In this document: in pieces, positions 1-45,095 of the stretch
Layout of the letters: the number at the start of each line of letters is the position of its first letter
Position numbering within the stretch: position 1 is the first letter of the stretch
Assembly (NCBI GenBank): GCA_004764695.1
Contig: SMSO01000036.1
Span: 1,550,001-1,614,000, forward strand
Length of the DNA stretch: 64,000 nt
Source of the DNA: Schizochytrium sp. TIO01
Lineage: Eukaryota; Protista; Bigyra: Labyrinthulomycetes
Direction of reading: 5' to 3'
Notes under the pieces: generated by a model
What the model was told of the DNA's origin: nothing
Databases searched by the model: none
What the model saw: only the letters and a program-made list of their open reading frames with translations
Made by a program: the position numbers and the translations under genes

Positions 1-2252
1 TCTAGACAAACCATCCGGGCAAAACTATAGTCTGTGCTTCTCGTCCCTGACGCCTCAAGGGTTTCCTCAATTGAAGAAAATGTCTCCGTGAAACCCAGTA
101 AATCATACATGGATGAGTCTGCTTCTGGCAATGCAAACGTTCCGATAAGGATATCTGCATCATAGACGTAAAGAGTAGCTTTTGAAAGTTCTATAGGCCA
201 ATCAAGAAGTCTATTTTCAATATAGAAAACATACAAACTGCTTGCCATTTGGTCAAAGCGAATTGTCTCATTAACATATCCAGAATCAAAATTTGCATCT
301 CCTAGGTGTCGCGCACTTCCGCATTTACTATTTACGTCAGCGATGCTTGACACAGTACATGTTTTGGTATCGCTTGCGTTAAATCGAACCTTTAAGTCTA
401 AATCTGCCGGTGCTTCGCATGCTGAAGCGTTTGTAGCTGTGCAAACGAAACCGTCATTCCATACCAGACGTACAGATATGCTGGATGCATTAGCAAAGGT
501 TGGGCTCGTCGTGGGAGAGAGCGTCGTTGGCCCTTCGGTTGGTGAAGTGCTAGGCAAATCAGTTGGGTTCAACGTTGGGTTCATCGTGGGTGCTGCAGAA
601 CTGATACTAGGAGAGTTACTTGTGGGCACCAATGTAGGTGCGGAAGTTGAAGCACTTTCATTCCGCGCATCACATGCTGGGCATGTTCCTCCGCCACAAT
701 CAATCTCAAGTTCTTCTCCGTCTAAGATATTATTGTTACATGATGCAAGCCCGGGGCCAACACTGATATTTTGTTCAATGAGAAAATCACAAACCTCGGC
801 TCGAGAGCTTTCTTGCATTATAGTGATTTCACTACCGAGTTTCGTAGCCAAGCCTATACCAATACCTATCAAAGCAACAATTACCATCACAACAGCAACT
901 TTAGCACTTCGAGGATGGTGGAGCACCTTGCCGTCATGTTTTATCTCACGATGAAGATCAAGAGTCGCGCCCAAGCCAACAAATAAAATTGTCATATACC
1001 ACATTCCACCGCCTGCAATCAACGTACGAAATGTATAGAGGGCAGCGCTTACTGATACACAACATGCTGAATCGACACAACCAATTAAACAAGTATCTGC
1101 AATCGAATTGTTCATTTCGATTGTTTCCCAGGAAACGGTTGTGAGCATTTTAGACGTGGTAGAATTCGTTGTAATACGCTCACAGACAGGCGGATTTAAT
1201 TCTGTTATGCCATTTAACGGAATGTATTTTTCACAGGAAAAATAATCTTCAAACCAAGAGCGTCCCATCAGTTTTAATACATTGGCACATTGCTCATCGG
1301 ATGCTACTTCTTCGTCATATGTGTGTGCTGCGAGACCTATGAAGCTTACAAGGGCAAACAACGTCATGACAGAAGACAGGCCTCCGTGAATACCAAGCAT
1401 CTTCTTGTTTTCAATCCATCCAGCAAAAAAACCATAGATCGAAACTGCTGCAGCAATTATGCCCCAAATGGCAGCAACAGCAATCCACGACGTTGAGTTT
1501 CCAGATACTTTAATTGTAGCAGAAAGAAAGGCAACTCTATTGTTCATCATCAGTGCAGCAACCATGATAAACATTGCGCCAAGCAACATCCATAGGCAAC
1601 ACAATTCTTGTAACGATTGAATGATAATGTACCATGTAACAATGCGTAAACTCAATAGCATAGCAAACGCAGCCACTGGTATCATAACAAAGCCCAAGTA
1701 TACGCCGGCTTTCGCATAATCAAGGTCAGCGGAAGATGTGCACACCGTTTCAGCATGTGTTGAAAGCAACACCGATCCAGTTGACAGTACCACAAGCGAC
1801 ATTGCAATCCATGTACCGTGAAAGAATATTTCTAGGAGATTCTGTCCAGGAGTATCAAGACCATCAAGGTCATTCAGAAGATCATTAGGGACACGTTTCC
1901 AACCATAGAGGCCTACAGAGGCCATTGCACATACGAAAAAACAACCTCCACCAAATGCTTGAGCAATGGGGCATGTACTAGACGCGCTTAAACTACCTGC
2001 ACAAAAGGACATGAGGATCAGCATTACAAGCGAAAAGAATAATCTGCTGTGATCTTTGCTTTCTAAAATAAGCTCATATGCCATTCGGGCAGGGGTAGGT
2101 TTTTTCCCTCCTGGGTCTACTGACCGCAATCGAACATGTTTTTCATAGGAGCGAAGCTGACCGTCTGTAAATTTTTGCAAACGATATATTGATGGCTTCT
2201 GCGAGCTTTCAGCATCCGGAGCAGTTGGCAAAACCTTTGAAGATACTGTCAT
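1..2252 (-). CDS. Multi-pass membrane protein (about 9 TM, tetraspanin-like modules) followed by a Cys-rich motif, a P/T-rich linker and a YfaP/DUF2135-like domain; 3' end lies outside the window
   Basis: Manual translation from ATG at 2252 (MTVSSKVLPTAPDAE...) is open for 750 codons to base 1; absent from the ORF track because no stop falls in the window. About 9 hydrophobic segments, then CNNNILDGEELEIDCGGGTCPAC, PT-rich stretch, VRLVWNDG...DLDLKV. Confidence 0.85.
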   Translation of the reverse strand, partial: MTVSSKVLPTAPDAESSQKPSIYRLQKFTDGQLRSYEKHVRLRSVDPGGKKPTPARMAYELILESKDHSRLFFSLVMLILMSFCAGSLSASSTCPIAQAFGGGCFFVCAMASVGLYGWKRVPNDLLNDLDGLDTPGQNLLEIFFHGTWIAMSLVVLSTGSVLLSTHAETVCTSSADLDYAKAGVYLGFVMIPVAAFAMLLSLRIVTWYIIIQSLQELCCLWMLLGAMFIMVAALMMNNRVAFLSATIKVSGNSTSWIAVAAIWGIIAAAVSIYGFFAGWIENKKMLGIHGGLSSVMTLFALVSFIGLAAHTYDEEVASDEQCANVLKLMGRSWFEDYFSCEKYIPLNGITELNPPVCERITTNSTTSKMLTTVSWETIEMNNSIADTCLIGCVDSACCVSVSAALYTFRTLIAGGGMWYMTILFVGLGATLDLHREIKHDGKVLHHPRSAKVAVVMVIVALIGIGIGLATKLGSEITIMQESSRAEVCDFLIEQNISVGPGLASCNNNILDGEELEIDCGGGTCPACDARNESASTSAPTLVPTSNSPSISSAAPTMNPTLNPTDLPSTSPTEGPTTLSPTTSPTFANASSISVRLVWNDGFVCTATNASACEAPADLDLKVRFNASDTKTCTVSSIADVNSKCGSARHLGDANFDSGYVNETIRFDQMASSLYVFYIENRLLDWPIELSKATLYVYDADILIGTFALPEADSSMYDLLGFTETFSSIEETLEASGTRSTDYSFARMVCL

Positions 2253-3511
2253 CCTAGCTCTAGTAAAAGAATTATCTCTGTCTTATGCGTATAGCTCTGG
2301 CTATTTTATCTCACCCACAAATCCAGCTTTTGTCTTTTTTGATGATACCATTAAAGTAGTAATAAGGCGATTAGGACATCCAACGAGCTGGGATTGAGTG
2401 CAACTACACTCGTAAGATTTTCCAGCCCTAGGTCTGAAGTACTACGGATCGAAGAAGCTTCCAATATAAGATCTCTAGCTAATTTTATTACTGCAATCAA
2501 GAGTTTGGTTGATTTTAATTGATAGCTCGAGCTTATACTTGTTTCTTCGACAGTGTTTTACTACTTGCGTCTGATTCAAGATCAATTACTCGATCAATCC
2601 ACCGCGTCTTCTCTTTGCACTTGCTATATTAGATCTCCTCTGAAGAGTAATTGCTCAATGGGATAGCCTTCTATCCTTTCTAGCAGCTTCTGCAGCAACT
2701 TGTGACTTGCACCACGTATAATCGATATTAATTCTGATTTTGATGTTTTTTGGCGTACCTAAATTGCATTCGTCGCCACTCCTTCTACCCAAGCTATAAT
2801 ATGCCGACGTACTCTTGCTTTCTTCTGATGTTTCTACCCTAATATCATCAGGCTCAGCTGAGACATCTCCAGCTACTCTTTCCTCATGTTCCAACGCATC
2901 CTTTTATTGTAAATGACCATATCATTCTATAATTATGGCCGTTACGCTTTGAATGCGATGGCACTGTAAAATAAAAATAAATTTGTCTATCATCCTAAAA
3001 GCTTTTTAGCTCTCTGTATAACCCCTAGCTAGATATTACTTGAATACTAAGATTTTTTAAATTGAAAAACTAGGCGATTTAGGAGAAAAGCAGAATTTTT
3101 AATTTTTTTAATTTTTTTTAAGTTGTAGTGCGGTACACACCCCGTCGGTCTAGCAAAGAGCCCACCTCGATAGCACAATCAAAGTCACGATAAAATTCGT
3201 TCTTGGGAAGGAGACCTTCTTTGATTTAACTTCTGTGCTACGAGACGCCTGTGAGTTCCGCTTTAGTGCCTCTACGAGTTGTGCGGCTTGTCTTGCGGCG
3301 GGCGTGCTGCGTTTCACGTTTAGCACAACTCATGCACGCACGCCTAAGCATAAGCAAGGGAGCGAACGAAGAAGTGGGACAGGCGGGCTTCTTTAAGCTT
3401 TAACATAAATAACTCGCAGTGGGTTGCAAAGACGCGTAAACGTCAGAACCATCAGATTTTGTAGCGATTGACATTGGTGTCTGGTACCAGAGAGCGAAAC
3501 GGGTCACAACA

Positions 3512-6178
3512 ATGGCACAAGAGCTTCAACGGGGCGACGCGAAAAGACCGACTTGTGAAGAAGACGGTAAAGAAGGGGACTTGATTACAAAGACCCGAAA
3601 GGGATTAGCAACTACTGAGAACAATGCTATGAGAAGCAATCCTCAAATGCGTCGCCAGGACGACCAGCTGTCCAAAAAGGGCTCTTTAGGGCGAGACGAT
3701 GAACTCCTACAGAGTGTGGTGAATAAGAGCGCCACGAGTATTACGGACTACAATGTAGCCCGCGCGGTGGGAAAGGGAAAGTTCTCGACGGTATATCGTG
3801 CCGAGTTGAAGTCTAGCGGAGAGACGTTTGCCCTAAAACGAGTGTCGGTGTTCACAAATATGAGCAGAAAGTCAAGGATTAAGTGTCTGGAAGAAGTCGG
3901 TTTGATTCAAGCATTGGATCATAGCAACATTATTCGTTGCGAGGATGCATTCTTAGACCAAGATGAATTAATTATTGTTCTTGAATGGGCAAGTGCAGGC
4001 GATTTGAAGCGACAGATTCGCAAAGCCAATGAGCGCGGGAAACGCTTAGAAGAACGTGTTATATGGAGATATTTTGTCCAGCTTGTCAGTGCAATTGAAC
4101 ATATGCACTCTAAGAGAATTATGCATCGTGATTTGAAGCCTGCAAATATTTTTCTGATGACCGATGGATGTGTAAAGGTCGGCGATCTGGGTCTCGGTCG
4201 CGCCCTAGGTGATGACATGACTGCTGCCTACTCGAAAGTAGGTACGCCCTTGTATATGTCGCCCGAGGTACTCCAAGGTAAAGGGTATGATTGGAAATCA
4301 GATGTATGGAGCTTGGGATGTATTTTATATGAGTTGGCAATGCTTCGATCGCCATTCAAGGAAGAGGGTATTGCCCTACCGGACCTCTTCAAAAAAATTG
4401 AAACAGGAAAATACCCCCCTCTCGATGATCACTATTCTACTGAACTGATCGATCTTGCAAACTCAATGCTGCGCCTTACCCCAGCAGATCGCCCGGATGT
4501 CCAGCATATTGCTGCACGGTCACATGCAATGTATAAGGGAATCCAAATGCGTCCGCTTACTATTGCTACGCAACGTACTTCTCCTCGAGAGGAGAAACAT
4601 CAGGCTCATGTAGAAGGGAGAAGTACGATTCCTTCCTCACATTCTTCGGGCACATCGCCATCTCCTTCATGTAAGACATCTAGCCGCCAGCAAAGCTCAT
4701 CTTCTTCTGAGGAGCCAACAACTTTTAATCATCCTCAAGAACAAGCGAATCTAGATAGAGGCGACCTAAAATTAGCAACGAGAGATAGACGCCCAAATAA
4801 TGCAAGTGAACCACATTCTGGTAGCTCATCCAAGAGCGTACCTGCAAACTCCCCTTTAAGGGAGACCAGCAACGTTGATAAAAATGCTGCAACAAACATC
4901 TCTGGGAAGGGAACGTCCTTTACGGGTTATGCAACACATGCTAAAACTGCAATGCTGGTCACGGATAAATCAGCACTGCTTGATATTGACAATGCTGCTG
5001 ATTTACTTACAATCGCAAAATACCCAAATAAAGATTTACAACCTGCTGTAAGATTTGCCCATGACCCTGATCTCATAGGAGGCCCAGCTGGCAGCCGCCA
5101 TTCACAGTATGTTGCATTCATGAATATATGTTCATGGATACTAGTCCAAATGAACTCATCATGGAGGTTCGATGGTTTGCAGCCTCCTCTACAAAATGCA
5201 CGTACTCTTTTGACAACCATCAGTGCATTAGGGCGTCATATAGAACAAGAAGTGAGTTTAGTGAGCCCCTCTCATCTTATCAACGGTTTTGGTCCTCCAG
5301 TATGCCGCATTATGTTTATTTTGGCAGAAATGCTAGTTTATCGGGTGCAAAAAATTTGTTTTATGCCTCCAGACTACACAGTTATTGCAAGCACCTCAAT
5401 TGAGGATATGGACAACGACAATGATGATTTACTGCAAGAAGAAGCAATAGAGAGTGAGATTGAAGCTGAAGCTATGTCAGATGACGAAGATTTGAATGTC
5501 GAGCCAGCTTCCTGGATACAAGGTAAATTAGGCTCTATATCAAAAAATAGTCAGTCAATAAGTGGTGCATTAGGTGCACCAATTAAATTGCCAATGTTAG
5601 ATAATCCTTGCCAAGATGCACTAGAGGAATGGCAATTAGAACTAGAACGCGTTTCATCAAAATTGCATAATGCAAACAAGAGCTGTACTTTAGTTGGGTG
5701 GCAAGACCGAGTTCATACTTTGACTGAGGCAAAGATGTCCTTGGGATCTCGCTCTAGCTCTATTAACACGTTGCGTATTGCTGCAGACAAGTGGGATGAG
5801 GAGGTATCACAAATTCGTCTGAAGGAAGCAAGGCTAAACAACAATTTCGAAAATGAAAGAAATATTTACGACATTACTAGACAACGGCGCGATGACTTAG
5901 AGTCAAAGATGCACGAATTAAGGGACAGAGTTGATGCGCTTGTTGCCGAATTTGATGAACTGGGCGATCGTGAAGAAGAGATTGTGTCTCGGATATCGGA
6001 GAGCTCTGACAAATTGTCTGGCCCTGATCGCGTGAGAAAGCTGCGCACAATGATTGCACAACTTGGACGCGAGGTGAAAAGCATGAATATTCAGATTGGG
6101 ACACAGCTTCATAATGTTGAGCAAAATCAAGCAAAAGATGAAACTGAGAAGTCTTCAACGACTTTATCAGCAGCCTAA
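3512..6178 (+). CDS. NEK6/7-like Ser/Thr kinase fused to a C-terminal IFT57/HIPPI-like region
   Basis: 888 aa. Kinase motifs GKGKFSTV, HRDLKPANIF, GDLGLGR (NEK6/7 signature), GTPLYMSPE, KSDVWSLG. C-terminal half has IFT57-like motifs PSHLINGFGPPVC, EEWQLELERV, EVKSMNIQIG. Confidence 0.9.
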   Translation: MAQELQRGDAKRPTCEEDGKEGDLITKTRKGLATTENNAMRSNPQMRRQDDQLSKKGSLGRDDELLQSVVNKSATSITDYNVARAVGKGKFSTVYRAELKSSGETFALKRVSVFTNMSRKSRIKCLEEVGLIQALDHSNIIRCEDAFLDQDELIIVLEWASAGDLKRQIRKANERGKRLEERVIWRYFVQLVSAIEHMHSKRIMHRDLKPANIFLMTDGCVKVGDLGLGRALGDDMTAAYSKVGTPLYMSPEVLQGKGYDWKSDVWSLGCILYELAMLRSPFKEEGIALPDLFKKIETGKYPPLDDHYSTELIDLANSMLRLTPADRPDVQHIAARSHAMYKGIQMRPLTIATQRTSPREEKHQAHVEGRSTIPSSHSSGTSPSPSCKTSSRQQSSSSSEEPTTFNHPQEQANLDRGDLKLATRDRRPNNASEPHSGSSSKSVPANSPLRETSNVDKNAATNISGKGTSFTGYATHAKTAMLVTDKSALLDIDNAADLLTIAKYPNKDLQPAVRFAHDPDLIGGPAGSRHSQYVAFMNICSWILVQMNSSWRFDGLQPPLQNARTLLTTISALGRHIEQEVSLVSPSHLINGFGPPVCRIMFILAEMLVYRVQKICFMPPDYTVIASTSIEDMDNDNDDLLQEEAIESEIEAEAMSDDEDLNVEPASWIQGKLGSISKNSQSISGALGAPIKLPMLDNPCQDALEEWQLELERVSSKLHNANKSCTLVGWQDRVHTLTEAKMSLGSRSSSINTLRIAADKWDEEVSQIRLKEARLNNNFENERNIYDITRQRRDDLESKMHELRDRVDALVAEFDELGDREEEIVSRISESSDKLSGPDRVRKLRTMIAQLGREVKSMNIQIGTQLHNVEQNQAKDETEKSSTTLSAA

Positions 6179-6370
6179 GCACAAGCGATTCAAAATACGT
6201 AGGCCTTAAACTTTAAACTACTATGAAACAAGTTTTTCTATAAAAATGAACAAAAGCAAGAAACAGCAATATTCAGATATTGTTAGACAAGATCAGGTAG
6301 TTAAGACTTTTATTATAGGAAAAACATGGCACATAATAATCTTAATTGTTTTGAATAAGTAACAAAGACC

Positions 6371-7627
6371 CTAAGGGCGAACTTGAAGAAACGCAGGAAG
6401 AGAAACCCTACGATTCAAAAACCCTACCAGCTCTTGTGCAGTGCGTACAGGTGCATCTTCATGTACAAAATGGCCTACGCGAACTTCCGGGAATACGACA
6501 AGTTTGAATTTCCCTGTGCATGCAAATGTAAAAGGATTAACAACATTGTTTACGAAAAAAGGTCAGTCCAGTTGCTCCATAAGAAAGTCAAATTTAATTT
6601 GCATCGCAGCAACCTCCCAACCAAAAGAGAACTTACCCTGCATGTGGCCGACCATCATGGGTTGATCAAGTCGTTCACGGCCCGCCAAAAGAATCGCCTT
6701 GTTGATCAGTCGTATGTCTACAAAAGCCTGCGAAAATCCGGTAAACCAACTTGCCCAAGCATCGTAGCTTTTCGCAAGATCAGTTCGCCATATGAAGCCC
6801 GACGAGGCTCCAAAGGCAGCTGCCTCCTTCGTGGATGCCTTGCGAAGCTGACCGCGCATAGACACATTTGCAGAAACAGGGTTCTGTGTCATACCATGCT
6901 CTAGTGCCCATAGTACAGCTGTCCGAAAGTTCGCAAACCCAGCTGGTCGCTTAGTAACAGTAGCAAGTGAGTGTTCCAAAGAACTGAGAGCTAACTCTTC
7001 CACCGCATCCATGACGAAAAGGCCCCGAACCTGCACAGTGTTCGTTCGTGAGGCCATGAGCTCCTTCGCAACCCAGCAAGCAATAGCCCCCCCCATGCTA
7101 TGGCCTACCAAAAATACATGCGTAGGCTTATCGCGTGGTACAGTCGAAGAAACTAAGGTATCTACAATCGCAAGGCAGTCATGCACAAGCTGATCTTTTG
7201 TAAGACTATCGTATTCTTTCGTGCACTCTGTCGCTCCATGAGCACGTGCATCGTAGGCAAACAATGCTGGTGCAGAAGGTCCTTTGAGCATTCGTTTAAG
7301 CTCTGCCACAGTGGTCGCGTACGTCTGAGAGGACTGTCCCGCTCCATGGAGAAATAGAACCAATGCTTTTCCTTCAGCGACCTGGATGGCTTCAGGTGCA
7401 ACAAGGGGAATTTTACCAGCTCGTGCATCGTCAATTTCCAAGTCCGCTGCAGCTTTCATTTGCATTGGCACGTTTCGATTGCCTTCTACGAGAACTGCGT
7501 CTTCCTGAGCCCATCTAAGTAAAAAGAGATCGTCATTCTCCCCGTCACCACCGTCCACGCCTTTCAAGCAAAGTCTGCACGCTCCAGACCAAGCCTGTAT
7601 CTCGTTCAAGGTCTCATCATTCATCAT
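6371..7627 (-). CDS. PPME1: Protein phosphatase methylesterase 1 (alpha/beta hydrolase); join(6371..6513,6637..7627); start uncertain, possible extra 5' exon 7750..7911
   Basis: FLHGAG, YDARAHG, GHSMGG nucleophile, WRTDL, ILLAGRERLD..MVGHMQGKF. Removing GTAAGT...CACAG intron 6514..6636 restores KLVVFPEVRVGHFVHEDAP with the catalytic His. Confidence 0.9.
6514..6636 (-). other. Spliceosomal intron of PPME1 (123 nt)
   Basis: GTAAGT donor and CACAG acceptor; splicing restores the conserved GHxxHED motif in frame. Confidence 0.9.
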
Positions 7628-8577
7628 GTTGCTGGCTGTAGCTACGTCTAGCTGCTGGACAACCTGCAACGAGGATCAATCGTCTGCTTGTGCAGACTTC
7701 TCTAAATCGTTGTTGATGTTAATTTTCCATTCCTATAGTAATTAATTACTCTGTTTGCAATCATCATCGTTATCAGATTCCCTGCATTCCCTGGTTTTAC
7801 TCCTTTTCTTAAACCCACGTTTTTGTTTTCAGGACACTCTGCGATTGAACTCGGCACTTTAGACAATTGACTTTCGTGCTCAAAGCAGTCGTCATCTTGC
7901 TTTCGAAGCATTTTGCATTCCTAATGCAGCGCCAAAGTGGACTTTGAGTGAGATATCGCACTCAAACTCGGGAAGGGAAAAAAGCTTAGTATTACGAGTA
8001 CTACAACACCTAAAACAAAGAACATGAATACGTCTGAAGAGGTCTATCTCTTTGTTTGAGTTGGATATTGCTTGGTCAAATATAGTATGCAGAGACAGCA
8101 TTAACATCTGCTGTTTAAACCTGCCAAGGGTAGTTTTCCAACGCTTGTTTGCAACTCATGTTTGCAATCTATCCCGTTTGCTCATTCATCCCTTTCCGCC
8201 AAAGCCAAAGCCCTCCCTGCTACCGTATCACCTTCACCATTTCATGTTCTGTTTCTTTTATTATGAACGTTCCCATTATGTGAATTTAAATACCAACTTG
8301 AATACTGGGAAAACTAAGGCCTTGTGAACAGTTTTGGAGGGAAAAGAACAACCAACTGAAGAGAGTGCTTGCAGATTGCCTTTCTCCAATAAGAACAGCA
8401 CTACTAGTTTTACTTATTTGCCGCATATCGAAAGTACTTTTACTTATTATAAATTCAACAAACTAATAAACAAAAAGATTAAAGATTAAAAGCATTCAAA
8501 GCAACAGAGACTACGGTAGTACCTATTCGTGCCTATAAGAAGGAAGAGGGAGGAGAATAACAAATAAACAAATAATC

Positions 8578-18371: not shown

Positions 18372-20411
18372 CTAGTGAGAAGAAAGCGAGACGTGCTTCT
18401 TCGTCTTAGGAATAAGATAATCAGGAAGTACGGATGGTTCCGGCATACCCTCTCTAGAAATACTTATAGCAAGATGGTGAGCCACTACGAATTCGTCACG
18501 ATCAAGTCGCCTGTCGCCATCGATATCAGCTAACTCAAGGATTCTAGCTATAGTAGCCTTAGACAATTGCGACCGCAAGAGAAACTCGCTAGCCGTCTTA
18601 CCCTTGACAAAGGATCCATCAGGGTCATTCTCAGCATACTTATCAAAGTTCCTGCAGCACAAGTTGTAACGCTCCTTTGTAACGGGCCACTTGCGCCCTC
18701 CAACAGCAGCCGAGCCAGCGCTAGATTTTGTCTGAGATAGCATCGGTGATGTAGGAGGCTGCGTTGGCTTCATCCTAAATTGTGCATTTTTTGGTGAAGG
18801 TATAGCCTCTGAACCGCCAGGAATGGCCGTGACACCCTGGCTGAGTGAGGTGCTGCGACGGGGCGGGGCAGGTGGGCCAGTGCCAAAAATGTTTGCCTGA
18901 ATATTGTCGCAATCTGCCACAATCGTAGATGAGGCTTCGGAAGCATTTCCAGCTACGATAATGTTATCGACTACGGTAGGTCTACTTCCAGGAGTATCAC
19001 GGAGAGTAGCGTTAGGATCAGGCCCGACATAGGTGATAGGAAACATCCCCTCGCGACCATCTTCTGTGGAGCCAAACCACCAGTCAGGGTCATCAGTAGA
19101 AATCAATTTAATTCGCTCTCCAGCATAAAGCTGCAATTCCACATCCTCGCGAGGTTCGAAATCATACAACGCTAGAACATGTGAAGCACGTGAGAGATCA
19201 TCAGGTGCTTGGATATCCTGGGTATTTGCTTGACTTGGAGTACGATTTGCTGCTTCCGCAGCATCTACTGGTTCAATAAACTCCTCGGTACCTGTAAGAC
19301 CACAATAAGCGCACGGAAAGATTCCCATTTCTGTACTTCCATCGGGCAGCATCTTCAAGCCAGTATACCAATCTTGATTAACCTGGCCTATGATTTTCAC
19401 TTGATCGCCCTCAACAAGATAAAGCTCATCGTCTTCCTCGGGCTCATGGTCATACAGGACAGTCACAAAGCGACTCACTCTGTTATTGTCAGCCACCGGG
19501 ACCGCAGACTCGCCAATGTGGTGACCTTGGTATAAGGGGTCAGCCGACATGGCTACAGCAGTATCAAAGCTTCCAATCCGCTCACGGGAATCCTGGCCAC
19601 TAACCGTACCTTCGTGTCCTCCCCCAGAAGGCATTGCACTGTTATGAGGAGTGAAGCCCGCTGGCAAGGTTTGTGTGATTGGCTGGGTTGCCAGGAAGCG
19701 ACCTTGGGGCTTTTCGCGAGTTGGGGGAGGTACATCAAAGAGATCTGATGCCTGACCAATAAGGCACTTCATTACAAGTGTCATGTTTTGAGCTTGCTTC
19801 ATCATGACTTGAGGGTCCGGCACTGCGTCGCTGGAAGGCGGAGGATCCAAGAGAATTGCCCCAAACATGTGAGCCAGACGGTCTTGATCAGTGAGACAGT
19901 CGCGTAAGAGCATGCAAAGGTCGCGGAGGTTCTCGAAATTCTTGTGAGGCACATCCTGTAACACTTCGCTTACTACTTCGACTATGGGCTTTGTGAGCCC
20001 CGTCTGCTCAAGGTCGCGAGAGAGGAAGACTTCGCTGAGGTGATGGGGAATAAGGGGTTTGTTCATCTCTTTAAGAAATAATTTCACAACATTGGCCCAC
20101 ACGTGAACATCGTAGTGTTCAAGAACAGGCCCAGGCGCATCGCGAGATCGCAATAAGTCCTTGGCAGCCATCTGGAAAGATGCCGCATCCGCTTCCGGGT
20201 CATTTCCACCGACTCTCATGAACAAGTTGTCTGTGTTGAGCGCATTCTCATATAGGTAATGAAACAGAGGTGTGAGCACGGCCATAACACGATTCTCTTC
20301 TTCACCATTGAGCCCCAGCTTCTTGGCGGCCTTGCTCAACTTGTAAGCCTTAGCCGCATCCTTTTTGTTGGTGGAGCTATTTTTGTTTTTTCCCCGCTTG
20401 AAAGGCAGCAT
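18372..20411 (-). CDS. RhoGAP-like + two SH3 + C-terminal EH domain protein
   Basis: 679 aa. LFMRVGG (Arg finger region), ANVVKLFLKEMNKPLIP; SH3 motifs VLYDHEPEEDDEL..DWY..GIFPCAY and ALYDFEPREDVEL..DWW..GMFPITYV; EH motif LADIDGDRRLDRDEFVVAHHL..PSVLP. Confidence 0.88.
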   Translation of the reverse strand: MLPFKRGKNKNSSTNKKDAAKAYKLSKAAKKLGLNGEEENRVMAVLTPLFHYLYENALNTDNLFMRVGGNDPEADAASFQMAAKDLLRSRDAPGPVLEHYDVHVWANVVKLFLKEMNKPLIPHHLSEVFLSRDLEQTGLTKPIVEVVSEVLQDVPHKNFENLRDLCMLLRDCLTDQDRLAHMFGAILLDPPPSSDAVPDPQVMMKQAQNMTLVMKCLIGQASDLFDVPPPTREKPQGRFLATQPITQTLPAGFTPHNSAMPSGGGHEGTVSGQDSRERIGSFDTAVAMSADPLYQGHHIGESAVPVADNNRVSRFVTVLYDHEPEEDDELYLVEGDQVKIIGQVNQDWYTGLKMLPDGSTEMGIFPCAYCGLTGTEEFIEPVDAAEAANRTPSQANTQDIQAPDDLSRASHVLALYDFEPREDVELQLYAGERIKLISTDDPDWWFGSTEDGREGMFPITYVGPDPNATLRDTPGSRPTVVDNIIVAGNASEASSTIVADCDNIQANIFGTGPPAPPRRSTSLSQGVTAIPGGSEAIPSPKNAQFRMKPTQPPTSPMLSQTKSSAGSAAVGGRKWPVTKERYNLCCRNFDKYAENDPDGSFVKGKTASEFLLRSQLSKATIARILELADIDGDRRLDRDEFVVAHHLAISISREGMPEPSVLPDYLIPKTKKHVSLSSH

Positions 20412-24801: not shown

Positions 24802-25953
24802 ATGGAAACTGTACAAGCCGCTTTGGGCGGTCGAGGTACTGCAGTCGACGCAGAGGCACTAAGGCAGTTGCTCTGCGAGAGCTTTGGTGTGGAACTCTCC
24901 AGGAGCGACGTGGTAACTGCTAGTGATGTTTCAAATCGCCACGACTCCGCACAAAACGCCAGAGCTGCCGCTCTTGCGACCTGTCTGTGCTCCGCTTCCA
25001 CATCGAGAGACTGGACGTTCTTCGACGGCCTTGACCAACCCAGAGATACTCCCGTCGATCCACCCAGGCAACGGCCTCGCTCCGCTGTCGCATATCCGCG
25101 GCAGTATTCAAAAAGCTCAAAATCACAAGCATCTTTAGGATTGTCTTCTGAAGAAGCGCTTTCCTCCGCGAGAAGCTACTCATCCGCTAATTTATCTCAT
25201 TCCGGTCGCTCTGAGAATAACTTCGGACCGAATTTGGCATCCGACCGCGAGTTTTGGGGAACTCGAAATGGCTGGCAGAAGGCACCGATAGAGTCTGACG
25301 TAGGGCGGTTTCTCAACCCTTTCGAGCAAGGCAACGCTGAGACAACTCGTGCAGATGCAATAGACAATATGCGGGTAGTAGAGACGGAGCTGCAGAAGCT
25401 TGCAAGGGCTATGGATAGTCTTCAGAGACTATCCAGGAGGTACGTCTCGCTAGCAGCAAGGCTTGGAGAGCACGGTAACGAGGTCACGCCACTCGATGCT
25501 TACTTGCACGCTGTGCAGCACAAGGATACTGCAAAGGCGCTGCGAGATCGTATTCGCCATGTCAAAGAAGAAAGGGCACTGTATGAGGAACTTGCAAAAC
25601 ATCTACCAGAAGTGCAGGAAGGAGGGGCATGGCAAGCATATGGGGGTGATGAAGAGGAGGATGCCAATGAGGTTGTTCGCGCGCTAGAAGGACTGGAGGC
25701 ACAGCTGGTGCAAGCTGCTCCTTCCGTGGAGAGAGTACGGAATCTATGGACTGCTGCAAAACAACGGGTACCAGCACAAGCGCTGTCTCGAATCATGTCG
25801 TCTTCTAAACTCCGCTCTCAGGCGAAACAGCTGTCGCGTAATTTCCCGTCAAGCAAGTTGCAAGACGAAGATGCAACTGCGTCAGAGAGACGGGCTGAAC
25901 TTGAGGCGCTGTGTGCAGCAGTACTGAAAGACACACAATTCAAAATTGTATAG
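24802..25953 (+). CDS. Hypothetical coiled-coil protein (383 aa from first ATG)
   Basis: Long ORF with coding-like composition and heptad-rich helices; family not recognised. Confidence 0.75.
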   Translation: METVQAALGGRGTAVDAEALRQLLCESFGVELSRSDVVTASDVSNRHDSAQNARAAALATCLCSASTSRDWTFFDGLDQPRDTPVDPPRQRPRSAVAYPRQYSKSSKSQASLGLSSEEALSSARSYSSANLSHSGRSENNFGPNLASDREFWGTRNGWQKAPIESDVGRFLNPFEQGNAETTRADAIDNMRVVETELQKLARAMDSLQRLSRRYVSLAARLGEHGNEVTPLDAYLHAVQHKDTAKALRDRIRHVKEERALYEELAKHLPEVQEGGAWQAYGGDEEEDANEVVRALEGLEAQLVQAAPSVERVRNLWTAAKQRVPAQALSRIMSSSKLRSQAKQLSRNFPSSKLQDEDATASERRAELEALCAAVLKDTQFKIV

Positions 25954-29680: not shown

Positions 29681-32113
29681 ATGCTTGACTTGAAGACAGC
29701 GTGCGCGGACCCGGCAAGATGCTGGCGTGAGGTGACGAGAGTTTCAGACTGGACTTTTGCGACGCAGCTCCTTGTACGAAGGGCCGTGATGGTGTCTGTA
29801 ACGTTGGTTCTCTCATATATGGAGCCCATCGTGAAGGTGCTTGGCAGCACAACCATTTTCCTTCCGATTTTGTCGCTGTTGATGTGCATGGTCGGGGACT
29901 TATCCACCAACGTCGGCGTTATAACCCAATTGGCACTCGCCTTTTGCATCTCCCTCATTGCAATTGGTGTTGGGTTTGCAGCGGCACTTGCAATTCAGGA
30001 CTCTCTGCCAGGCCTACTCGTGTGGACCTTCTTCAACAGCTTTTGTTGTTTCTACTTCTTTTGCAATGAACAAGCCCCCCAGCGAAAGATGCCTGGCGCG
30101 ATTGCGCTCATCATGATCGATACAATCACACTCACTGGGTATGTGCTAGCGCTCGACTATGGATATGTCCCGTTCGACCTCATCGAAAAGTATGTTGGGG
30201 AGTTCACGTTAGCTTTTGTCCTCAGCACAGCTACTTTTACTATATCAGCGCTCACCATTTTCCCATGGCTTGCTTACAAAAAGTATTTTCAAGGTGAACG
30301 AGAGCTCCGACACGAAACAGCAGCAATGCTCCGACAAACCTGTGCAATTACACGAGGTGCCCCGGCATCTACATTTCCAGAGCTTCAGTTTGTCGATTTA
30401 CGTAAGAAAGGAGTTCAACTTGGCTCACTCGCAAGCTCCAGCGCATATGAACTAAGATGGAAATTTGATGGCTCTGGTGCTCGCTTGAAAGAGACATATC
30501 AAATCTCATGGCGAATTGTTCGCTTAACAATTATGCTTAATGAGGCCTCACGGACTATGCTGGGTTCTCCTCGCATGGAGCGTGCATGGGACGCCATCAC
30601 TCAGTGGGTAGAAGCTATATGCCAGGTTTTAGAAACCGAGGAGCTTGAAATGTACAAAACTTATGTAGAACTTTGTCGAGATCGTCGCGATGAAGCGAAA
30701 AGAATCCTGCAGGAATGTTCACAGGCGGAGATTCGTGAAGATGAGTTTTTAGGTCTTACCTGGCTCACACTTTCCCGTATTGGGCGTCTCCTCCAAGATC
30801 TTCAAGATGTTCACTACCGCACAAAAGAGCAAAAACCATTTAAATTTAATCTAGTTGACTGGAAATCAACAATTATTTTCGGCGCTGGAACAAACAAAAA
30901 ATCGTTCTTCAACGCTGCGAGATCTTATACATGGTTTGAAAGAATGACAAACGCCTTCTCAAACTTCACCTCCACGCAAACATTTAAAGCTGCCCTCAAA
31001 GGAGCAATGGCTGTCACGGTTTTCGTAGCTTGCATTTTTGGTACAAATTTGCACTTTACAGTTGGCGTCAATGCAGCTGTAAACGGTCTGCATGCTTTAG
31101 AATCTGTACTACGGCAAATGTATCTCGGGCCATGTATAAAACGCACTTGGGACCGCGCTTTCGGCTCGTTCTTAGGCTTCGTTGCAGCTGGCGCAGCCTG
31201 GACTATTGCTTGTGCTGGCTCTGGGTGGGTATCAAACCCTGCACTTGGAGGCTGGACTTTGCTTTTGCTCGGTATCCCAGTGTACATACCCTTTTATCTC
31301 AAACCAAACTACTTCCGGTACTCCATTGGCAAGGTGTACGTCATCGTTGCACTGATCGGTATCTATGAGCTAGCTGGTCCGGGTGAGAAATTTCCAGGCT
31401 TTTGGGAGGCCGGTGGGATCATGACTGCAGCCATTATATTTGGTTGTGTTGTTGGCGCAATCTTTTGCCCTGTAGTATCCACTAATTCGGCGAAGTCCTC
31501 ACTTGAACTTCTCATGATCTTTTCATTGCAAGAGCTCGTGCATGTCGTACAGTGTGGATATATTAGGGCATCTGACCCCAGTGTTGTTTCTGAAGATGTC
31601 CTTGAAGCAAGTCTGTGGCAGCTATGGAATGAGTCGCGTGCTCGGGGAACAAAGTTGCTGCAGAGCGCTGCAACAGAGTCTAGATTTGGTGATTCTATCG
31701 AATGGTATAAAGAAGCTTTGAGCCTGGTTACAAAAATGGAGACTAGCGTATGGCGCATTAATACCTTGGTAGATTGGACTACAATCCCAGAAGAAACCCG
31801 CCGTGCCATATCTGAAGAGCTATGTACAAATTTCTTTTTCGTCTCAGCTATATTGGAAAAAAATGTGATGCATTCGGTATTCCAGCCACCTCGTCTTTCT
31901 TTGGACCTTAGTACGATCAATACCAGCGCTTTAAAAGAGCCCGACGAGATCATGTCTGTCTTATGTAGCCGCACGGTTCTACGAACATCTCATCAAACCT
32001 TATCCGATGCTTTCAATGAATTCTATAAGATCACCAAACAAAGACTTGGAGGTCCAGCATATGCATCTAATTTTCTTCATCCGTCCATATCAACTTCTAT
32101 AACACCAAGTTAG
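29681..32113 (+). CDS. FUSC / aromatic acid exporter / ALMT-like polytopic membrane protein
   Basis: About 810 aa from first ATG. Two TM bundles, each followed by a helical soluble domain; FKAALKGAMA and RTWDRAFGSFLG resemble the FUSC_2 R..GT..G motif. Confidence 0.75.
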   Translation: MLDLKTACADPARCWREVTRVSDWTFATQLLVRRAVMVSVTLVLSYMEPIVKVLGSTTIFLPILSLLMCMVGDLSTNVGVITQLALAFCISLIAIGVGFAAALAIQDSLPGLLVWTFFNSFCCFYFFCNEQAPQRKMPGAIALIMIDTITLTGYVLALDYGYVPFDLIEKYVGEFTLAFVLSTATFTISALTIFPWLAYKKYFQGERELRHETAAMLRQTCAITRGAPASTFPELQFVDLRKKGVQLGSLASSSAYELRWKFDGSGARLKETYQISWRIVRLTIMLNEASRTMLGSPRMERAWDAITQWVEAICQVLETEELEMYKTYVELCRDRRDEAKRILQECSQAEIREDEFLGLTWLTLSRIGRLLQDLQDVHYRTKEQKPFKFNLVDWKSTIIFGAGTNKKSFFNAARSYTWFERMTNAFSNFTSTQTFKAALKGAMAVTVFVACIFGTNLHFTVGVNAAVNGLHALESVLRQMYLGPCIKRTWDRAFGSFLGFVAAGAAWTIACAGSGWVSNPALGGWTLLLLGIPVYIPFYLKPNYFRYSIGKVYVIVALIGIYELAGPGEKFPGFWEAGGIMTAAIIFGCVVGAIFCPVVSTNSAKSSLELLMIFSLQELVHVVQCGYIRASDPSVVSEDVLEASLWQLWNESRARGTKLLQSAATESRFGDSIEWYKEALSLVTKMETSVWRINTLVDWTTIPEETRRAISEELCTNFFFVSAILEKNVMHSVFQPPRLSLDLSTINTSALKEPDEIMSVLCSRTVLRTSHQTLSDAFNEFYKITKQRLGGPAYASNFLHPSISTSITPS

Positions 32114-39832: not shown

Positions 39833-42742
39833 TTAGTCAATGGAAAAACGAGAAACAGATTGCCATAAGTTGTTGTGATGAGTGGTAGAATTGTGGTTTA
39901 CTTTAGATGCAAAAGCAGCTGCAGAATTGGATGTTTTCATATCTAAAGGAGAGCTGATAGGGCTGAAGTTTGGATTGTTTACACCTCCATATAGGTCTTC
40001 GCCTCCAATACCTTCTTCATCATTTTCAGTAACAAAGAGGTCCTTGAAGCTTTTCCGTAGACCACTTACAGGATCAATCTCGTCTTCATCCTCCTCCTCT
40101 TTCCCCTCTCCCTCGATTCGACATTCCAGATTTCTCTCAGATAAACGTTGGCGGCTGAGTTCACGTTCACGGCCCTTGGAAGGTGGCAAGGGTCCAACTC
40201 CGATAAGATCTGCCGCACTAAGCTGGAAGAACTCTGAGTCGTTATGTAAATCAGCATGAGAGAGTTGAGATGCGGAAATCTGTGTAGGAGCACGCTCCGT
40301 ATCAAATTGCACAAGGCAAAAATCTTCCGCTTCATGGATTTCAATAACAGTACCTTCTCGATCAGACGTGTCTCGTACTCGATCGCCTGGACCCAAAGAG
40401 ATCCCAGACCATTCACTCTCACTTTCCCACATCCCCGAATGAGTCTCCTTAGGCAATTTCGGATTGTTTGTGGCATCTTGCTCGGTTTGATATTTGGCAG
40501 TGTCAGTGTCTCGGACGTGCTCATTTCCTCCTATGTATTTATGTTGTTCGGCCTCATGTCTTGACTGGCGTTTTGGTTTTCGTTTTCTTCGGAGACGCTT
40601 CTGCGCTTGAAGTTCTTGAGCATGCTGCTCTTGTGCTTGCAGCATCGCCTGTGCAACGCCAAGGGTCTTTTTGCGACTGCTCGCCTCAAATTGTTCGTAG
40701 AGCCGCAAGCATGCCTTCTGAGCCTTCACACCTGTTGCTCGTAATTTTTGAAACTCTTGTTCTGCCTCCTGTTGACGAATCGCAGCTAGATTCCGGTAGC
40801 CATCAAAGCAGGCCTCGCAGACTCGAACGAGCTGGTGCTGCTCTTTTCTCTCGTCTGCAGAAATCCATGCTGAGAGTTCGTCTTCAGAGTATGCAGGCTT
40901 ACTGAGCCCTGAACTAAGATTTTGTGCATCCTCCCAGGCTCGTTGGCTCGCTCTTTGAAGAAAAATTATCCGCTTTGAGATTGGCTTGGATGCCCTGGTA
41001 ACACATGACGATCCACCGCACAAGTCACCAGCACACTTTCTTGTACATACAGTACTGTTGTCAGAAGAATGTGACGTGTCTTTACTAATAATCCGCTTCT
41101 TCCTGGGCTTTGGCAGAGGTGCAACTATAGTCACTGTGGTTCCATGGCTGCGACGTTTTGCATTCTCAGAGAGGATATTATCCTCCAATTTAAGCGCTTT
41201 CACCTGTAGCAAATGCCAATGAGACTGTTCGTCTTGGCAAAAATCTGCTGCAAGTTCGGAAAGTGGAAGCCGAGTGTTCTTTCGTAAAGCTTGAGCAAGC
41301 TCTTCAATCATTTTCGCCGGAATAGGCCACACGCTTGGAGATGCTTGAACAAGATTACATCTCTCACGTGTTGACATATCTGTGGCAAGTTCATGAACAT
41401 GATGAGGGCGCAAGTTACGTCCGTGTAATGCATGTACGGTACCTAGCGGCATGCGGAGATGTGAGAGGTTTGGTACCGTCTGGGGGTGGACGTTATTGTT
41501 ATTGTCATTGCTCCCATCTTGCGTACTGGACAACGTTTTGGGCTCAGATTGCGATCCCCGAACCCAAAGTTGGCCTACCTTTGTTGCAGTAGTAGTTGAT
41601 TGTTGAACATACTCAGAGGTACTCGTAAGAATCCAAACTGAACGGCACCCATGTTGTTGATCCCACAAAGTACGAACAATCCATGGTCTTGTACCCCTTG
41701 CCTTCTGGAATTTCTGAATGCATAGGGTCCCCGGAGCATTTCTTTCAATCTCAGATAGGATATGAGCTTTAGAGTACAGGAATATGAGGGAAGAGTGATA
41801 ACCATAGAAACGATCGATCTTAAGATCTGCATCGCGAAAACGAAAGTGACTACGTTTTGCAACAGCAATAGGGTAGCCTTCAGGGTCAGGCGAGGTTCCA
41901 AACATTGTGTCGATTGCAGCAAGTAAGTTTATGTTATCCTTGCCACGTTCAAAGAAACGCCCCGAAAAATTATTGAAAGAGTCAAGTTCAACAGAAAAAC
42001 AAGGATCACTATCGACATCAGTAGATATACCTCGTTCACGGTGTGCGACATCAAGATTTACCACAATACAAGGAAGGAACGACGGCTTTGACCAAAGGCT
42101 TGTGGGTTTGCTTTTGGTAATTTGGGATGTCTGAATGCCCGATAAGGCTTTGGCGATATGCGGCCAAAACATAGAACCCGGCTCAACTCGTACACCCATA
42201 CCTGCATATACACTACGAGGCTCAACAGACACCGGGAAATAGTGTAACCCATAGAAATGGTTTGCAAAAGTTGCAGCTGTATATAATGTGCTTGTTTCTC
42301 GATTCACAGTAGGTACAGATAGTTTTCGTTTGCTGTCCCACCGCATCCTGTTTTTTACTTGTGTAAAGTTCGAAGCTCTAATTCCAGAGTCCTCTGTCCT
42401 CTCTGTGGCGGGGTCGCTTGCATCTTCTGAATCACCAGCCATCGGCGATTGGTCATTGTTATTTTCGGAAACGTCCAAATAGGGGTTTGTAAGAATGACT
42501 TGTTTCTGTCTCTTTGCAGGTAGTTCACGCCTTCTTCTAAGAAGCTTCCTATTTGCGATGCGGTTTCCGAGCATCAAACTTGAACTAGTGCCACCTAAAC
42601 TTAGCCGTCGTGCTTTTGAATCTTGTGTTTGGTCCTCCTCATCAACCACATGTTCCTCATCGAATAAGTTGGAGAACCAAGTCTCAAAACCCCTCTTGGC
42701 ATCACCAGCAGCTGAGTTCTCCTCCGTGCGAGAAGATTCCAT
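39833..42742 (-). CDS. Hypothetical 969-aa protein with ATP-grasp-like segments, a Cys cluster, a coiled coil and a Tudor/KOW-like beta domain
   Basis: Long ORF from first ATG. CIQKFQ..WIVRTLW and LAADFCQDEQSHWHLLQVKA; CAGDLC...VRVCEAC; GPGDRVRD..EGTVIEI...CLVQFD. Confidence 0.8.
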   Translation of the reverse strand: MESSRTEENSAAGDAKRGFETWFSNLFDEEHVVDEEDQTQDSKARRLSLGGTSSSLMLGNRIANRKLLRRRRELPAKRQKQVILTNPYLDVSENNNDQSPMAGDSEDASDPATERTEDSGIRASNFTQVKNRMRWDSKRKLSVPTVNRETSTLYTAATFANHFYGLHYFPVSVEPRSVYAGMGVRVEPGSMFWPHIAKALSGIQTSQITKSKPTSLWSKPSFLPCIVVNLDVAHRERGISTDVDSDPCFSVELDSFNNFSGRFFERGKDNINLLAAIDTMFGTSPDPEGYPIAVAKRSHFRFRDADLKIDRFYGYHSSLIFLYSKAHILSEIERNAPGTLCIQKFQKARGTRPWIVRTLWDQQHGCRSVWILTSTSEYVQQSTTTATKVGQLWVRGSQSEPKTLSSTQDGSNDNNNNVHPQTVPNLSHLRMPLGTVHALHGRNLRPHHVHELATDMSTRERCNLVQASPSVWPIPAKMIEELAQALRKNTRLPLSELAADFCQDEQSHWHLLQVKALKLEDNILSENAKRRSHGTTVTIVAPLPKPRKKRIISKDTSHSSDNSTVCTRKCAGDLCGGSSCVTRASKPISKRIIFLQRASQRAWEDAQNLSSGLSKPAYSEDELSAWISADERKEQHQLVRVCEACFDGYRNLAAIRQQEAEQEFQKLRATGVKAQKACLRLYEQFEASSRKKTLGVAQAMLQAQEQHAQELQAQKRLRRKRKPKRQSRHEAEQHKYIGGNEHVRDTDTAKYQTEQDATNNPKLPKETHSGMWESESEWSGISLGPGDRVRDTSDREGTVIEIHEAEDFCLVQFDTERAPTQISASQLSHADLHNDSEFFQLSAADLIGVGPLPPSKGRERELSRQRLSERNLECRIEGEGKEEEDEDEIDPVSGLRKSFKDLFVTENDEEGIGGEDLYGGVNNPNFSPISSPLDMKTSNSAAAFASKVNHNSTTHHNNLWQSVSRFSID

Positions 42743-43260: not shown

Positions 43261-45095
43261 ATGGACGAAGGCAACCATGTTTTGAATATGGTTCGTCGCT
43301 TCAAGAAGACACCACTAAAAGCTGAGGTAAGTTTCTCATTACATTCTGTCTAGGTGTATCCATCAACATCCATAGAGTCAATCGAATGCAGGTTGCAAAT
43401 TCTCCATGATGAAGCTTCTAACAGGAAAATTGCGCTAATTCTCACTACATCAATTTGAACAAACAGATCATTGAGGCGTTTGTCGATGTTGACACAAACT
43501 CTAGTTCACTTATTTCTAGGAGTGAGCTCCGTGATGGATTGCAGAAAAAATTCAATATTGATGTGACCGAAGAGGAGCTTGATGACGTATTCCACCGTAT
43601 GGATGTTACGGGTGACGATCGTTTAGATATCGTCGAGTTTTGTGACTTTTTAACTTCGGAAGTTGACCGTCTTCACCAAAAGCATCACCTCGCTGACAAT
43701 ATAGATAGTGAGAGTAGCTCTAGCTACAATCCTAGTGAATTGCAAACAAAACCAGTTGCTAGACAAGAAAGTACCAGTGAAGCTATAAAGGCAAAGCAGT
43801 TGCTTCAAGAAAATAGCACTGTGACACCTGCATATGTACCTGTGAGTAGCGACGAAGGTACTGATCATCAGCATCATCCGAGCGATGTGACTGTAACACC
43901 TGTCTATGTTCCTATGAACAGCGAGGAGGGCAACCATAATCAACAACAACACGACTTGGTGGCAACGCCGGTCTATGTTCCTATAAACAGCGAGGAGGGC
44001 AACCATAATCAACAACAACACGACTTGGTGGCAACGCCGGTCTATGTTCCTATAAACAGCGAGGAGGGCAACCATAATCAACAACAACACGACTTGGTAG
44101 CAACGCCAGTCTATGTTCCTATAAACAGCGAGGAGGGCAACCATGGTCAACAACAACACGACTTGGTAGCAACGCCGGTCTATATACCTATGGACAGCGA
44201 AGGGGGCAACCAAAATCAACAACAACACGCCGTAGATGCAAAACCAATATATCAACCTATGAAAAGTGAAGTAGATAAAGCGGATAAAGCTTACGATGAG
44301 GCCGTAATTGCATCACCGAAAAAAAATAATGTAGATGATGAACCTAGCAAACTAAGCCCCAGTCTTCATAGTCCTGAGGTTAAAGGTGAGCATACAGTCC
44401 AGCCGATAGCGTCAAACAAAGTATCAACTATTTTAGATGATACAAACGCTGAAATTCCGGAAGCAAAGAACCAAAAGAGCACTAAAGTTTCAGCACAGCC
44501 CCCCCCTAAATCATTTAGTATGGGTAATAGTAAAGTCTACCCAGAGCAGGTCCCAAACTTTCACATTCATATCAAGCATAGAATGAATCCGTTTAGGATT
44601 TTCTGTATTACGCTTTGTGGGCTTATGTTAATCTTCATTGTGGCACTCAGTGTATCTTTTGTCAGACTCTTCAGAAGTGACGTAACAACTGGTCAGCACA
44701 CAATACAACCCACAATACAGCCAACAGACATGCCGACATCCCATAGTCCTACAATGACTCCAACGTTGGCCCCAACGTATTTCCCAACATTCGCTCCAAC
44801 ACCACCTACACCAACTCCAACAGATGCTCCAACAGATGCTCCAACAGATACTCCAACAGATACTCCAACAAATGCTCCGACACCGTCTACGCCAGCTCCA
44901 ACAAATGCTCCAACACCACCTACACCAGCTCCAACACCAGTTCCAACAAATGCTCCAACACCACCTACACCAGCTCCAACAAATGCTCCAACAAATGCTC
45001 CAACACCACCAACACCAGCTCCAACAAATGCTCCAACACCACCTACACCAGCTCCAACACCAGCTCCAACAAACGAGTCGGTACCTATAAGCTAA
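43261..45095 (+). CDS. Type II membrane protein: EF-hand pair, 23-aa Tyr-motif repeats, one TM, P/T/A-rich mucin-like stalk; join(43261..43326,43467..45095), 564 aa
   Basis: Exon 1 from ccATGG, then GTAAGT..AACAG intron 43327..43466. EF loops DTNSSSLISRSE and DVTGDDRLDIVE; TM IFCITLCGLMLIFIVALSVSFV. Confidence 0.85.
43818..44265 (+). repeat. 69-bp coding tandem repeat (about 6.5 copies; VATPVYVPINSEEGNHNQQQHDL)
   Basis: Near-identical units with period 69 (GTCTATGTTCC at 43971, 44040, 44109); flanking units diverged. Confidence 0.95.
44790..45075 (+). repeat. Coding low-complexity PT/APTN repeats (GCTCCAACA-based)
   Basis: Repeated GCTCCAACA units encoding APTNAPTPPTP. Confidence 0.93.

Follow-up and report, generated by a model that had tools for sequence, protein, structure and literature searches.

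Introduction

NIMA-related kinases (NEKs) with an IFT57 domain at their C terminus have been described in ciliates. The accessible part of a 2017 preprint on the Stentor kinome reports two such kinases and states that they are "also found in other ciliates" (bioRxiv 10.1101/168187). An earlier note on the DNA treated here had regarded fusions of this kind as possibly unstudied entries of unverifiable novelty, a view which the preprint overtakes. In the same part, the description is limited to ciliates and comes with no function, tree or paralogue analysis. A literature search covering mainly journals outside subscription brought up no other paper that pairs a kinase with an IFT57 domain and, with some of the supplements included, nothing on how the fusion arose, what it does or which stramenopiles have it. 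The accessible sections of Parker 2007, in which a Nek6/7 clade is defined that includes kinases from Chlamydomonas and Tetrahymena, do not mention an IFT57 tail (PMC2031824); those of four further papers hold nothing on a kinase–IFT57 gene (PMC3019232, PMC3471859, PMC12221091, PMC4562644). In the available portion of the P. infestans kinome supplement of 2010, none of the six NEK rows is the fusion kinase and two motifs of the family were not found, so that its downy-mildew comparison is unusable. An oomycete flagellar-gene table lists, in its available part, only IFT57 and a CNK2-like kinase, and the available supplements of an Aurantiochytrium zoospore proteome, which perhaps do not include the full expression table, contain no IFT57 or NEK entry.

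The Chlamydomonas kinase CNK6 (Cre12.g514650; C_160119) belongs to the flagellar proteome according to the accessible text of that study (PMC2171396). Its best human match is NEK7, and its transcript goes up 3.2-fold after deflagellation, with the IFT57 transcript rising in the same time course (PMC3689809, accessible sections). Canonical IFT57, also called HIPPI, is a subunit of IFT-B2. As far as the available sections of two papers go, it pairs with IFT38 via its coiled coil (PMC4818760), binds IFT172 through helix alpha1 of its calponin-homology (CH) domain, for which Chlamydomonas E77 and K84 are needed (PMC9753473), and meets IFT88/52 with its C-terminal coil (PMC4818760, PMC9753473).

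Here we describe a gene, found in a window of 64 kb (the whole stretch of DNA that was analysed), whose 888-aa product joins a NEK to an IFT57-like module. It is a further member of the architecture noted in ciliates, and this architecture is broader than we found in print. Neither the single clade formed by the fused kinases nor its breadth, the apparent status of the module as an old paralogue or the conserved coil start next to putatively eroded contacts was found in print. To our knowledge, it is an open question how kinases are brought to IFT trains in order to adjust flagellar assembly and length, and we know of no function of a NEK–IFT57 fusion. A kinase with a complete paralogue of a core IFT-B2 subunit attached to it would offer a direct and testable answer, for which Chlamydomonas, Tetrahymena, Stentor and thraustochytrids are suitable, easy models. 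The fusion family also bears on the origin of the tail-less NEK6/7 of animals.

Results

The fusion is a single transcribed gene

The open reading frame is located at 3512..6178 (+). It is intronless and encodes 888 aa with no internal stop, which confirms the one uninterrupted frame noted before. Eight of 24 listed sequencing runs, none of them recorded as RNA, were examined, and the run type (RNA or DNA) was judged from the splicing of an intron in a neighbouring gene. Because this intron is spliced in X1, X2, X5, X6, X7 and X11, these runs were taken as RNA; in X15 and X19 it is unspliced. X1 and X2, which belong to one study, each gave one contig spanning the entire frame (3219–6261 and 3261–6254, respectively), with no joint or indel within 3512–6178. 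The longer contig was taken as the approximate extent of the transcript, 3219..6261 (+), the contigs as such giving no strand, start or end. A contig of run X7, from another study, bridges 4494–6205, and in X5, X6 and X11 the frame is covered only piecewise. The DNA-type run X15 also has a single contig over the whole frame; this contig is unspliced and continues beyond the ends of the gene, whereas the runs X1 and X2 splice the neighbour's intron and stop near the ends of the kinase–IFT57 gene. The linker between the two halves is thus crossed by one transcript, and the fusion is confirmed as a real, transcribed single gene.

The long low-complexity linker and the piecewise coverage in some RNA-type runs could be taken as signs that the single frame is an artefact of an assembly join or of two neighbouring genes. 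Against this stand the frame free of stop codons, the single contigs in X1 and X2 as well as in X15, and the recurrence of the same fusion among its relatives: 75 of the best 120 of 751 homologues consist of a kinase and PF10498, and the top cluster in the ESM Atlas (0.99), to which a second query led as well, has 88 members, 100% of them kinase plus IFT57, Ciliophora being the commonest group. At the sequence level such an artefact is already refuted, and we give it practically no weight.

Twenty-two strain variants are listed within the frame, none of which creates a stop. All seven in the kinase are synonymous and all seven in the Ser-rich linker change a residue; two of three in the CH region are synonymous, and none falls in 5617–6178. 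The numbers are small, but the pattern fits selection on both domains.

Domain layout and identity of the IFT57 module

Pfam places a kinase domain at aa 80–334 (3749..4513 (+); Pkinase, 207.7 bits), with its catalytic motifs intact, and IFT57 (PF10498) at aa 529–865 (113.9 bits, E 1e-32; curated cut-off 40). The AlphaFold model (mean pLDDT 69.6) comprises the kinase, a low-confidence linker (aa 360–483), a helical domain (aa 477–613), a second low-confidence linker (aa 619–699) and long helices (aa 701–887). A Ser/Thr-rich linker, predicted to be disordered, lies at 4547..4939 (+); it is nearly absent from some homologues and several hundred residues long in others. The helical domain, CH by alignment to IFT57, forms the N-terminal domain of the IFT57 module (4940..5350 (+)). 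It is followed by an acidic linker, again predicted to be disordered (5366..5608 (+)), and by the IFT57-type coiled-coil region, the predicted IFT38-pairing part (5612..6172 (+)).

With the C-terminal part as query, the sole significant match in the PDB was IFT57 (8ruy_M, E 3.3e-9), the next, unrelated one having E 0.22. A profile built from 40 fusions aligns to columns 18–400 of the 415 of canonical IFT57 with probability 100, from which it follows that the module is full length and includes helix alpha1. An HMM of canonical IFT57 scored the module at 93.2 bits (CH alone 22.3, coiled coil alone 61.5), compared with at most 9.9 bits for 500 block-shuffles and 5.7 for the reversed sequence. PF10498 is above its cut-off, and CH domain, linker and coiled coil follow in the order of the IFT57 family. 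The full-length IFT57-like module proposed in the earlier note is therefore borne out by Pfam score and profile coverage alike: the profile match, whose absence would have spoken against it, is significant, and the five IFT57 motifs it had quoted are all present in the translation in the quoted order. Used by itself as the query of a word-index search, the module gave no match among 7994 candidates, being too diverged for this method. When the IFT57 profile was run against the PDB, IFT38 was not reached; the other matches were rejected as chance coiled coils.

The kinase is a sister of animal-type NEK6/7

Among the human NEKs the kinase matches NEK7 best (E 1e-83), followed by NEK1 (6e-53) and NEK2 (2e-46), and NEK7 is also its best fold match. 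The catalytic residues K109, E128, HRD205–207 and DLG225–227 and the activation-loop S241 are all intact. At the position of the autoinhibitory Tyr97 of NEK7 it has Cys143 (codon 3938–3940), and a Tyr is found there in 77 of 106 fused kinases; the kinase with Cys143 may perhaps be less repressed.

A kinase tree of 162 rows was calculated with FastTree and rooted on tandem kinases. Left out were 16 near-duplicate oomycete ids, rows below 270 bits or 195 aa, and about two thirds of the species-unassigned rows from the list of the best 120 homologues. All 106 fused rows, the fusion of the ciliate Blepharisma included, fall into one clade with support of 100, which also contains 31 rows without a detected IFT57 module (fragments or losses). 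Within this clade one group with support of 99 holds all named stramenopiles and another, likewise at 99, holds Blepharisma; two further clades comprise 17 and 4 rows. Two members of the fusion clade, P0195 and P0211, look green-algal by eye. Sister to the fusion clade is a clade (support 99) of 10 tail-less kinases including a NEK7, and 14 columns separate fused from tail-less kinases, for example SKVGTPLY versus SLVGTPYY and PEV versus PER. The NEK6/7-type assignment made earlier thus stands as regards the best match, whereas in the tree the kinase is a sister of the animal-type NEK6/7 and not inside their clade. Animal NEK6 and NEK7 are its best match in sequence and structure and have the DLG motif and the activation-loop serine in common with it; it differs from them in that NEK6/7 have no C-terminal domain and in that the equivalent of Tyr97 is absent from the 888-aa protein.

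Distribution of the fusion

Of the 75 fusions mentioned above 23 are named to species, 22 of them stramenopiles and one a ciliate, which bears out the expectation that similar fusions exist in other stramenopiles. These carriers are Hondaea, 17 oomycetes, four ochrophytes (Chrysoparadoxa, Chrysophaeum, an ochromonad and Triparma) and the ciliate Blepharisma. Downy mildews and pennate diatoms are absent from the named carriers, to which no weight was given because the list covers the best 120 of 751 homologues. All 23 belong to groups having flagella or cilia. Both in the homologue list and in the kinase tree the nearest relative of the 888-aa protein is the Hondaea protein, which makes a thraustochytrid the probable source. 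An additional search revealed Mallomonas as a further carrier, and an exhaustive profile search of 150 rows, which reached down to kinase-only proteins, found the module in 64 of 120 new representatives.

In the 888-aa protein the Ser-rich linker is longer than in the ciliate fusions and helix alpha1 is further eroded, the comparison being made with ciliate sequences other than those of Stentor. As far as the accessible part of the preprint describes them, the ciliate proteins share the N-terminal NEK and the C-terminal IFT57 (10.1101/168187), and the Blepharisma fusion lies in the same kinase clade.

Two other architectures were observed among the homologues. An entry of 1160 aa from Aphanomyces euteiches (P0031) combines a kinesin motor, a NEK and IFT57; its close relative P0110 from A. 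cochlioides (679 aa) is without the kinesin, so that P0031 is possibly a merged gene model. Tandem double NEK6/7-like kinases without IFT57 (P0003–P0007, P0009–P0011, P0017 and others, one of them from Durusdinium) form a group of their own.

The fused module is set apart from canonical IFT57

A search for short proteins found a stand-alone IFT57 beside the fusion in P. infestans, P. nicotianae, P. rubi and Chrysophaeum. Because four species with the fusion also keep the stand-alone protein, a replacement of canonical IFT57 by the fusion, as considered in the earlier note, is unlikely.

Module trees, which were quick and unrooted and have long fused branches, gave a consistent picture. In the first, 56 of 58 fused modules lie outside the canonical group (support 96), and in a second sample 27 of 29. 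The module of the 888-aa protein likewise falls outside when its grouping with canonical IFT57 orthologues is tested. The fused modules inside the canonical group are accounted for by P0025 (EukProt g7585.t1); without this mosaic, 28 fused rows split from 15 canonical ones (fish included) with support of 99. Fused modules have about 20% identity to canonical IFT57 and, in the pairs compared, 13–25% to one another. Judged from these sequence comparisons, the fused module is apparently an old, diverged paralogue of IFT57. Given the long branches and the quick, unrooted trees, a duplication before the animal–stramenopile split is allowed and not shown. With canonical IFT57/HIPPI (PF10498; PDB 8RUY/8BD7 chain M) the module has in common the CH domain, the acidic linker, the coiled coil and the core motifs. 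It differs in its position behind a kinase, its low identity, its separate place in the tree and its co-occurrence with the canonical protein in the four species.

P0025 itself has a CH domain 58% identical to that of its fused neighbour and a coil 54–57% identical to the canonical IFT57s P0137 and P0139. Either part of the gene was converted by canonical IFT57, which would hint that the coils are interchangeable, or the gene model is chimeric.

Contact surfaces and predicted pairing with IFT38

An acidic residue occupies the E77 position in 55 of 58 fused modules (D493 in the 888-aa protein); the canonical IFT57 of Phytophthora itself has a Gly there. At the K84 position a basic residue occurs in 17 of 58 fused versus 21 of 25 canonical modules (T500 in the 888-aa protein), and the K82 position, invariant in canonical IFT57, is L498. 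In the ciliate and Phytophthora fused modules helix alpha1 is nearly canonical. After helix alpha1 the best-kept part is the start of the coiled coil, where the 888-aa protein has the identical residue in 9 of the 17 columns that canonical IFT57 conserves; W707, E710 and E772 are invariant in all 56 fused and all 25 canonical modules. In the C-terminal coil, which corresponds to the IFT88/52 contact, identity is limited to 5 of 29 such columns, with 16 similar; the mean identity in the family is 0.34. The counts of conserved columns leave out P0025, P0015 and the fragment P0140. Both the IFT172 and the IFT88/52 contact regions thus appear partly eroded in the module of the 888-aa protein.

IFT38 sequences were taken from metagenome loci (Pfam Cluap1 in both of two tested), and one of them, from another organism, served as a stand-in partner for complex prediction. 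Aa 690–885 with this stand-in IFT38 scored 0.42 and the best of three controls 0.00; as a like complex is already solved and the partner was a stand-in, the value of 0.42 shows likeness and not binding. The runs agree in at least 77% of the contacts, and the pLDDT of the partner is at least 68. Among solved pairs 51 of 78 attain the pass mark for predicted complexes, as do 2 of 108 mismatched ones; the eukaryotic figures are 39 of 65 for solved and 2 of 126 for unrelated pairs. Passing scores of 0.60 or under comprise only 5 of the 78 solved pairs and all 4 passing mismatches of 180. The prediction weakly suggests that the coiled coil still pairs with IFT38. The prediction lends weak support to the earlier proposal that the kinase joins IFT trains.

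Discussion

We considered what the IFT57 module could do for the kinase. Our preferred reading, held tentatively and at somewhat less than even chances, is that pairing of the tail with IFT38 anchors the kinase to IFT-B2, the fusion being a minor variant and not a replacement. The pairing would occur through the coiled coil, as is weakly predicted, and would bring the NEK6/7-sister kinase, with its intact catalytic motifs, to IFT-B2 at the flagellum or basal body. Since the contacts to IFT172 and IFT88/52 seem eroded and canonical IFT57 is kept, the fusion would act beside the latter, serving IFT-B2 as an adaptor or minor variant and not as the structural subunit. By analogy with other NEKs, the docked kinase may have IFT or axonemal proteins as its substrates while flagella are being assembled or turned over. 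Docking is favoured by the full length of the module, its persistence beside the kinase in 106 members of a single fully supported clade, the conserved coil start, the weakly predicted IFT38 pairing, the variant pattern and the origin of the named carriers from flagellated or ciliated groups. It is weakened by the eroded contacts, the identity of only about 20% and the weak complex score.

The same erosion and divergence, with the modules on long branches, would also be expected if the tail had left IFT-B and, by pairing with itself or with another coiled-coil partner, served as an inbuilt scaffold or dimerisation device. It would then activate and position the kinase, as the Nek9 tail does for animal NEK6/7, and would probably do so at the spindle or basal bodies. 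The non-catalytic tail of Nek9 activates NEK7 (PMC2807034), a PDB title refers to Nek9-induced dimerisation, and the Tyr97 position is kept in most fused kinases. Such a role is less easily reconciled with the retention of the whole CH–linker–coil layout, with the finding that the residues invariant in fused modules (W707, E710, E772, G594) are largely those invariant in canonical IFT57, and with the predicted IFT38 pairing, weak as it is; we rate it a serious but less probable reading than docking. A third role would combine a kept IFT38-pairing coil start with eroded outer contacts in another way: the tail could sequester IFT38/54/20 without a link to IFT172 and IFT-B1 and so damp train assembly while the kinase promotes resorption, which corresponds to the competition with canonical IFT57 considered in the earlier note. 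The accessible text on cnk2 and cnk11, which affect flagellar length and disassembly (PMC4562644), is in line with this. Erosion is only partial, however, the E77 position being acidic in nearly all fused modules and helix alpha1 nearly canonical in those of ciliates and Phytophthora. If CNK6 is orthologous, its rise after deflagellation alongside IFT57 fits assembly better. We therefore regard sequestration as improbable. The probability that remains is reserved for readings beyond docking, dimerisation, sequestration and the artefact dismissed above.

Docking can be put in a bolder form, which we consider rather unlikely as a whole. A very old duplicate of IFT57, from before the split of animals and stramenopiles, would have been attached ever since to a NEK6/7-sister kinase and would occur in stramenopiles, alveolates and green algae (there as CNK6). 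It would exchange into IFT-B2 next to IFT38, an alternative subunit bearing a kinase, and so equip the trains with a built-in kinase that animals lack.

CNK6 is a lead only. It shares with the fusion kinase NEK7 as best human match, as far as the accessible description goes, and the fusion of Achlya is annotated as 'NimA-related protein kinase 6', a CNK6-like name. On this comparison by description, CNK6 is a candidate orthologue of the fusion kinase.

Other genes in the window

The neighbour of the kinase–IFT57 gene is a convergent alpha/beta hydrolase gene at 6310–7714 (-). Its intron at about 6512–6636 (~123 bases, CT..AC) is spliced in six runs, which means that the listed 354-aa hydrolase ORF does not have the true end. 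A frame at 3–2282 (-), open at the window edge and at least 760 aa long, contains many hydrophobic stretches as well as one part rich in Cys and another rich in Ser/Thr/Pro. Five ORFs of 383–969 aa have no Pfam match at E 0.01 (24802–25953, 29681–32113, 39833–42742, 43599–45095 and 52422–53657). At 18372–20411 (-) Pfam identifies a protein with RhoGAP, SH3 and EH domains.
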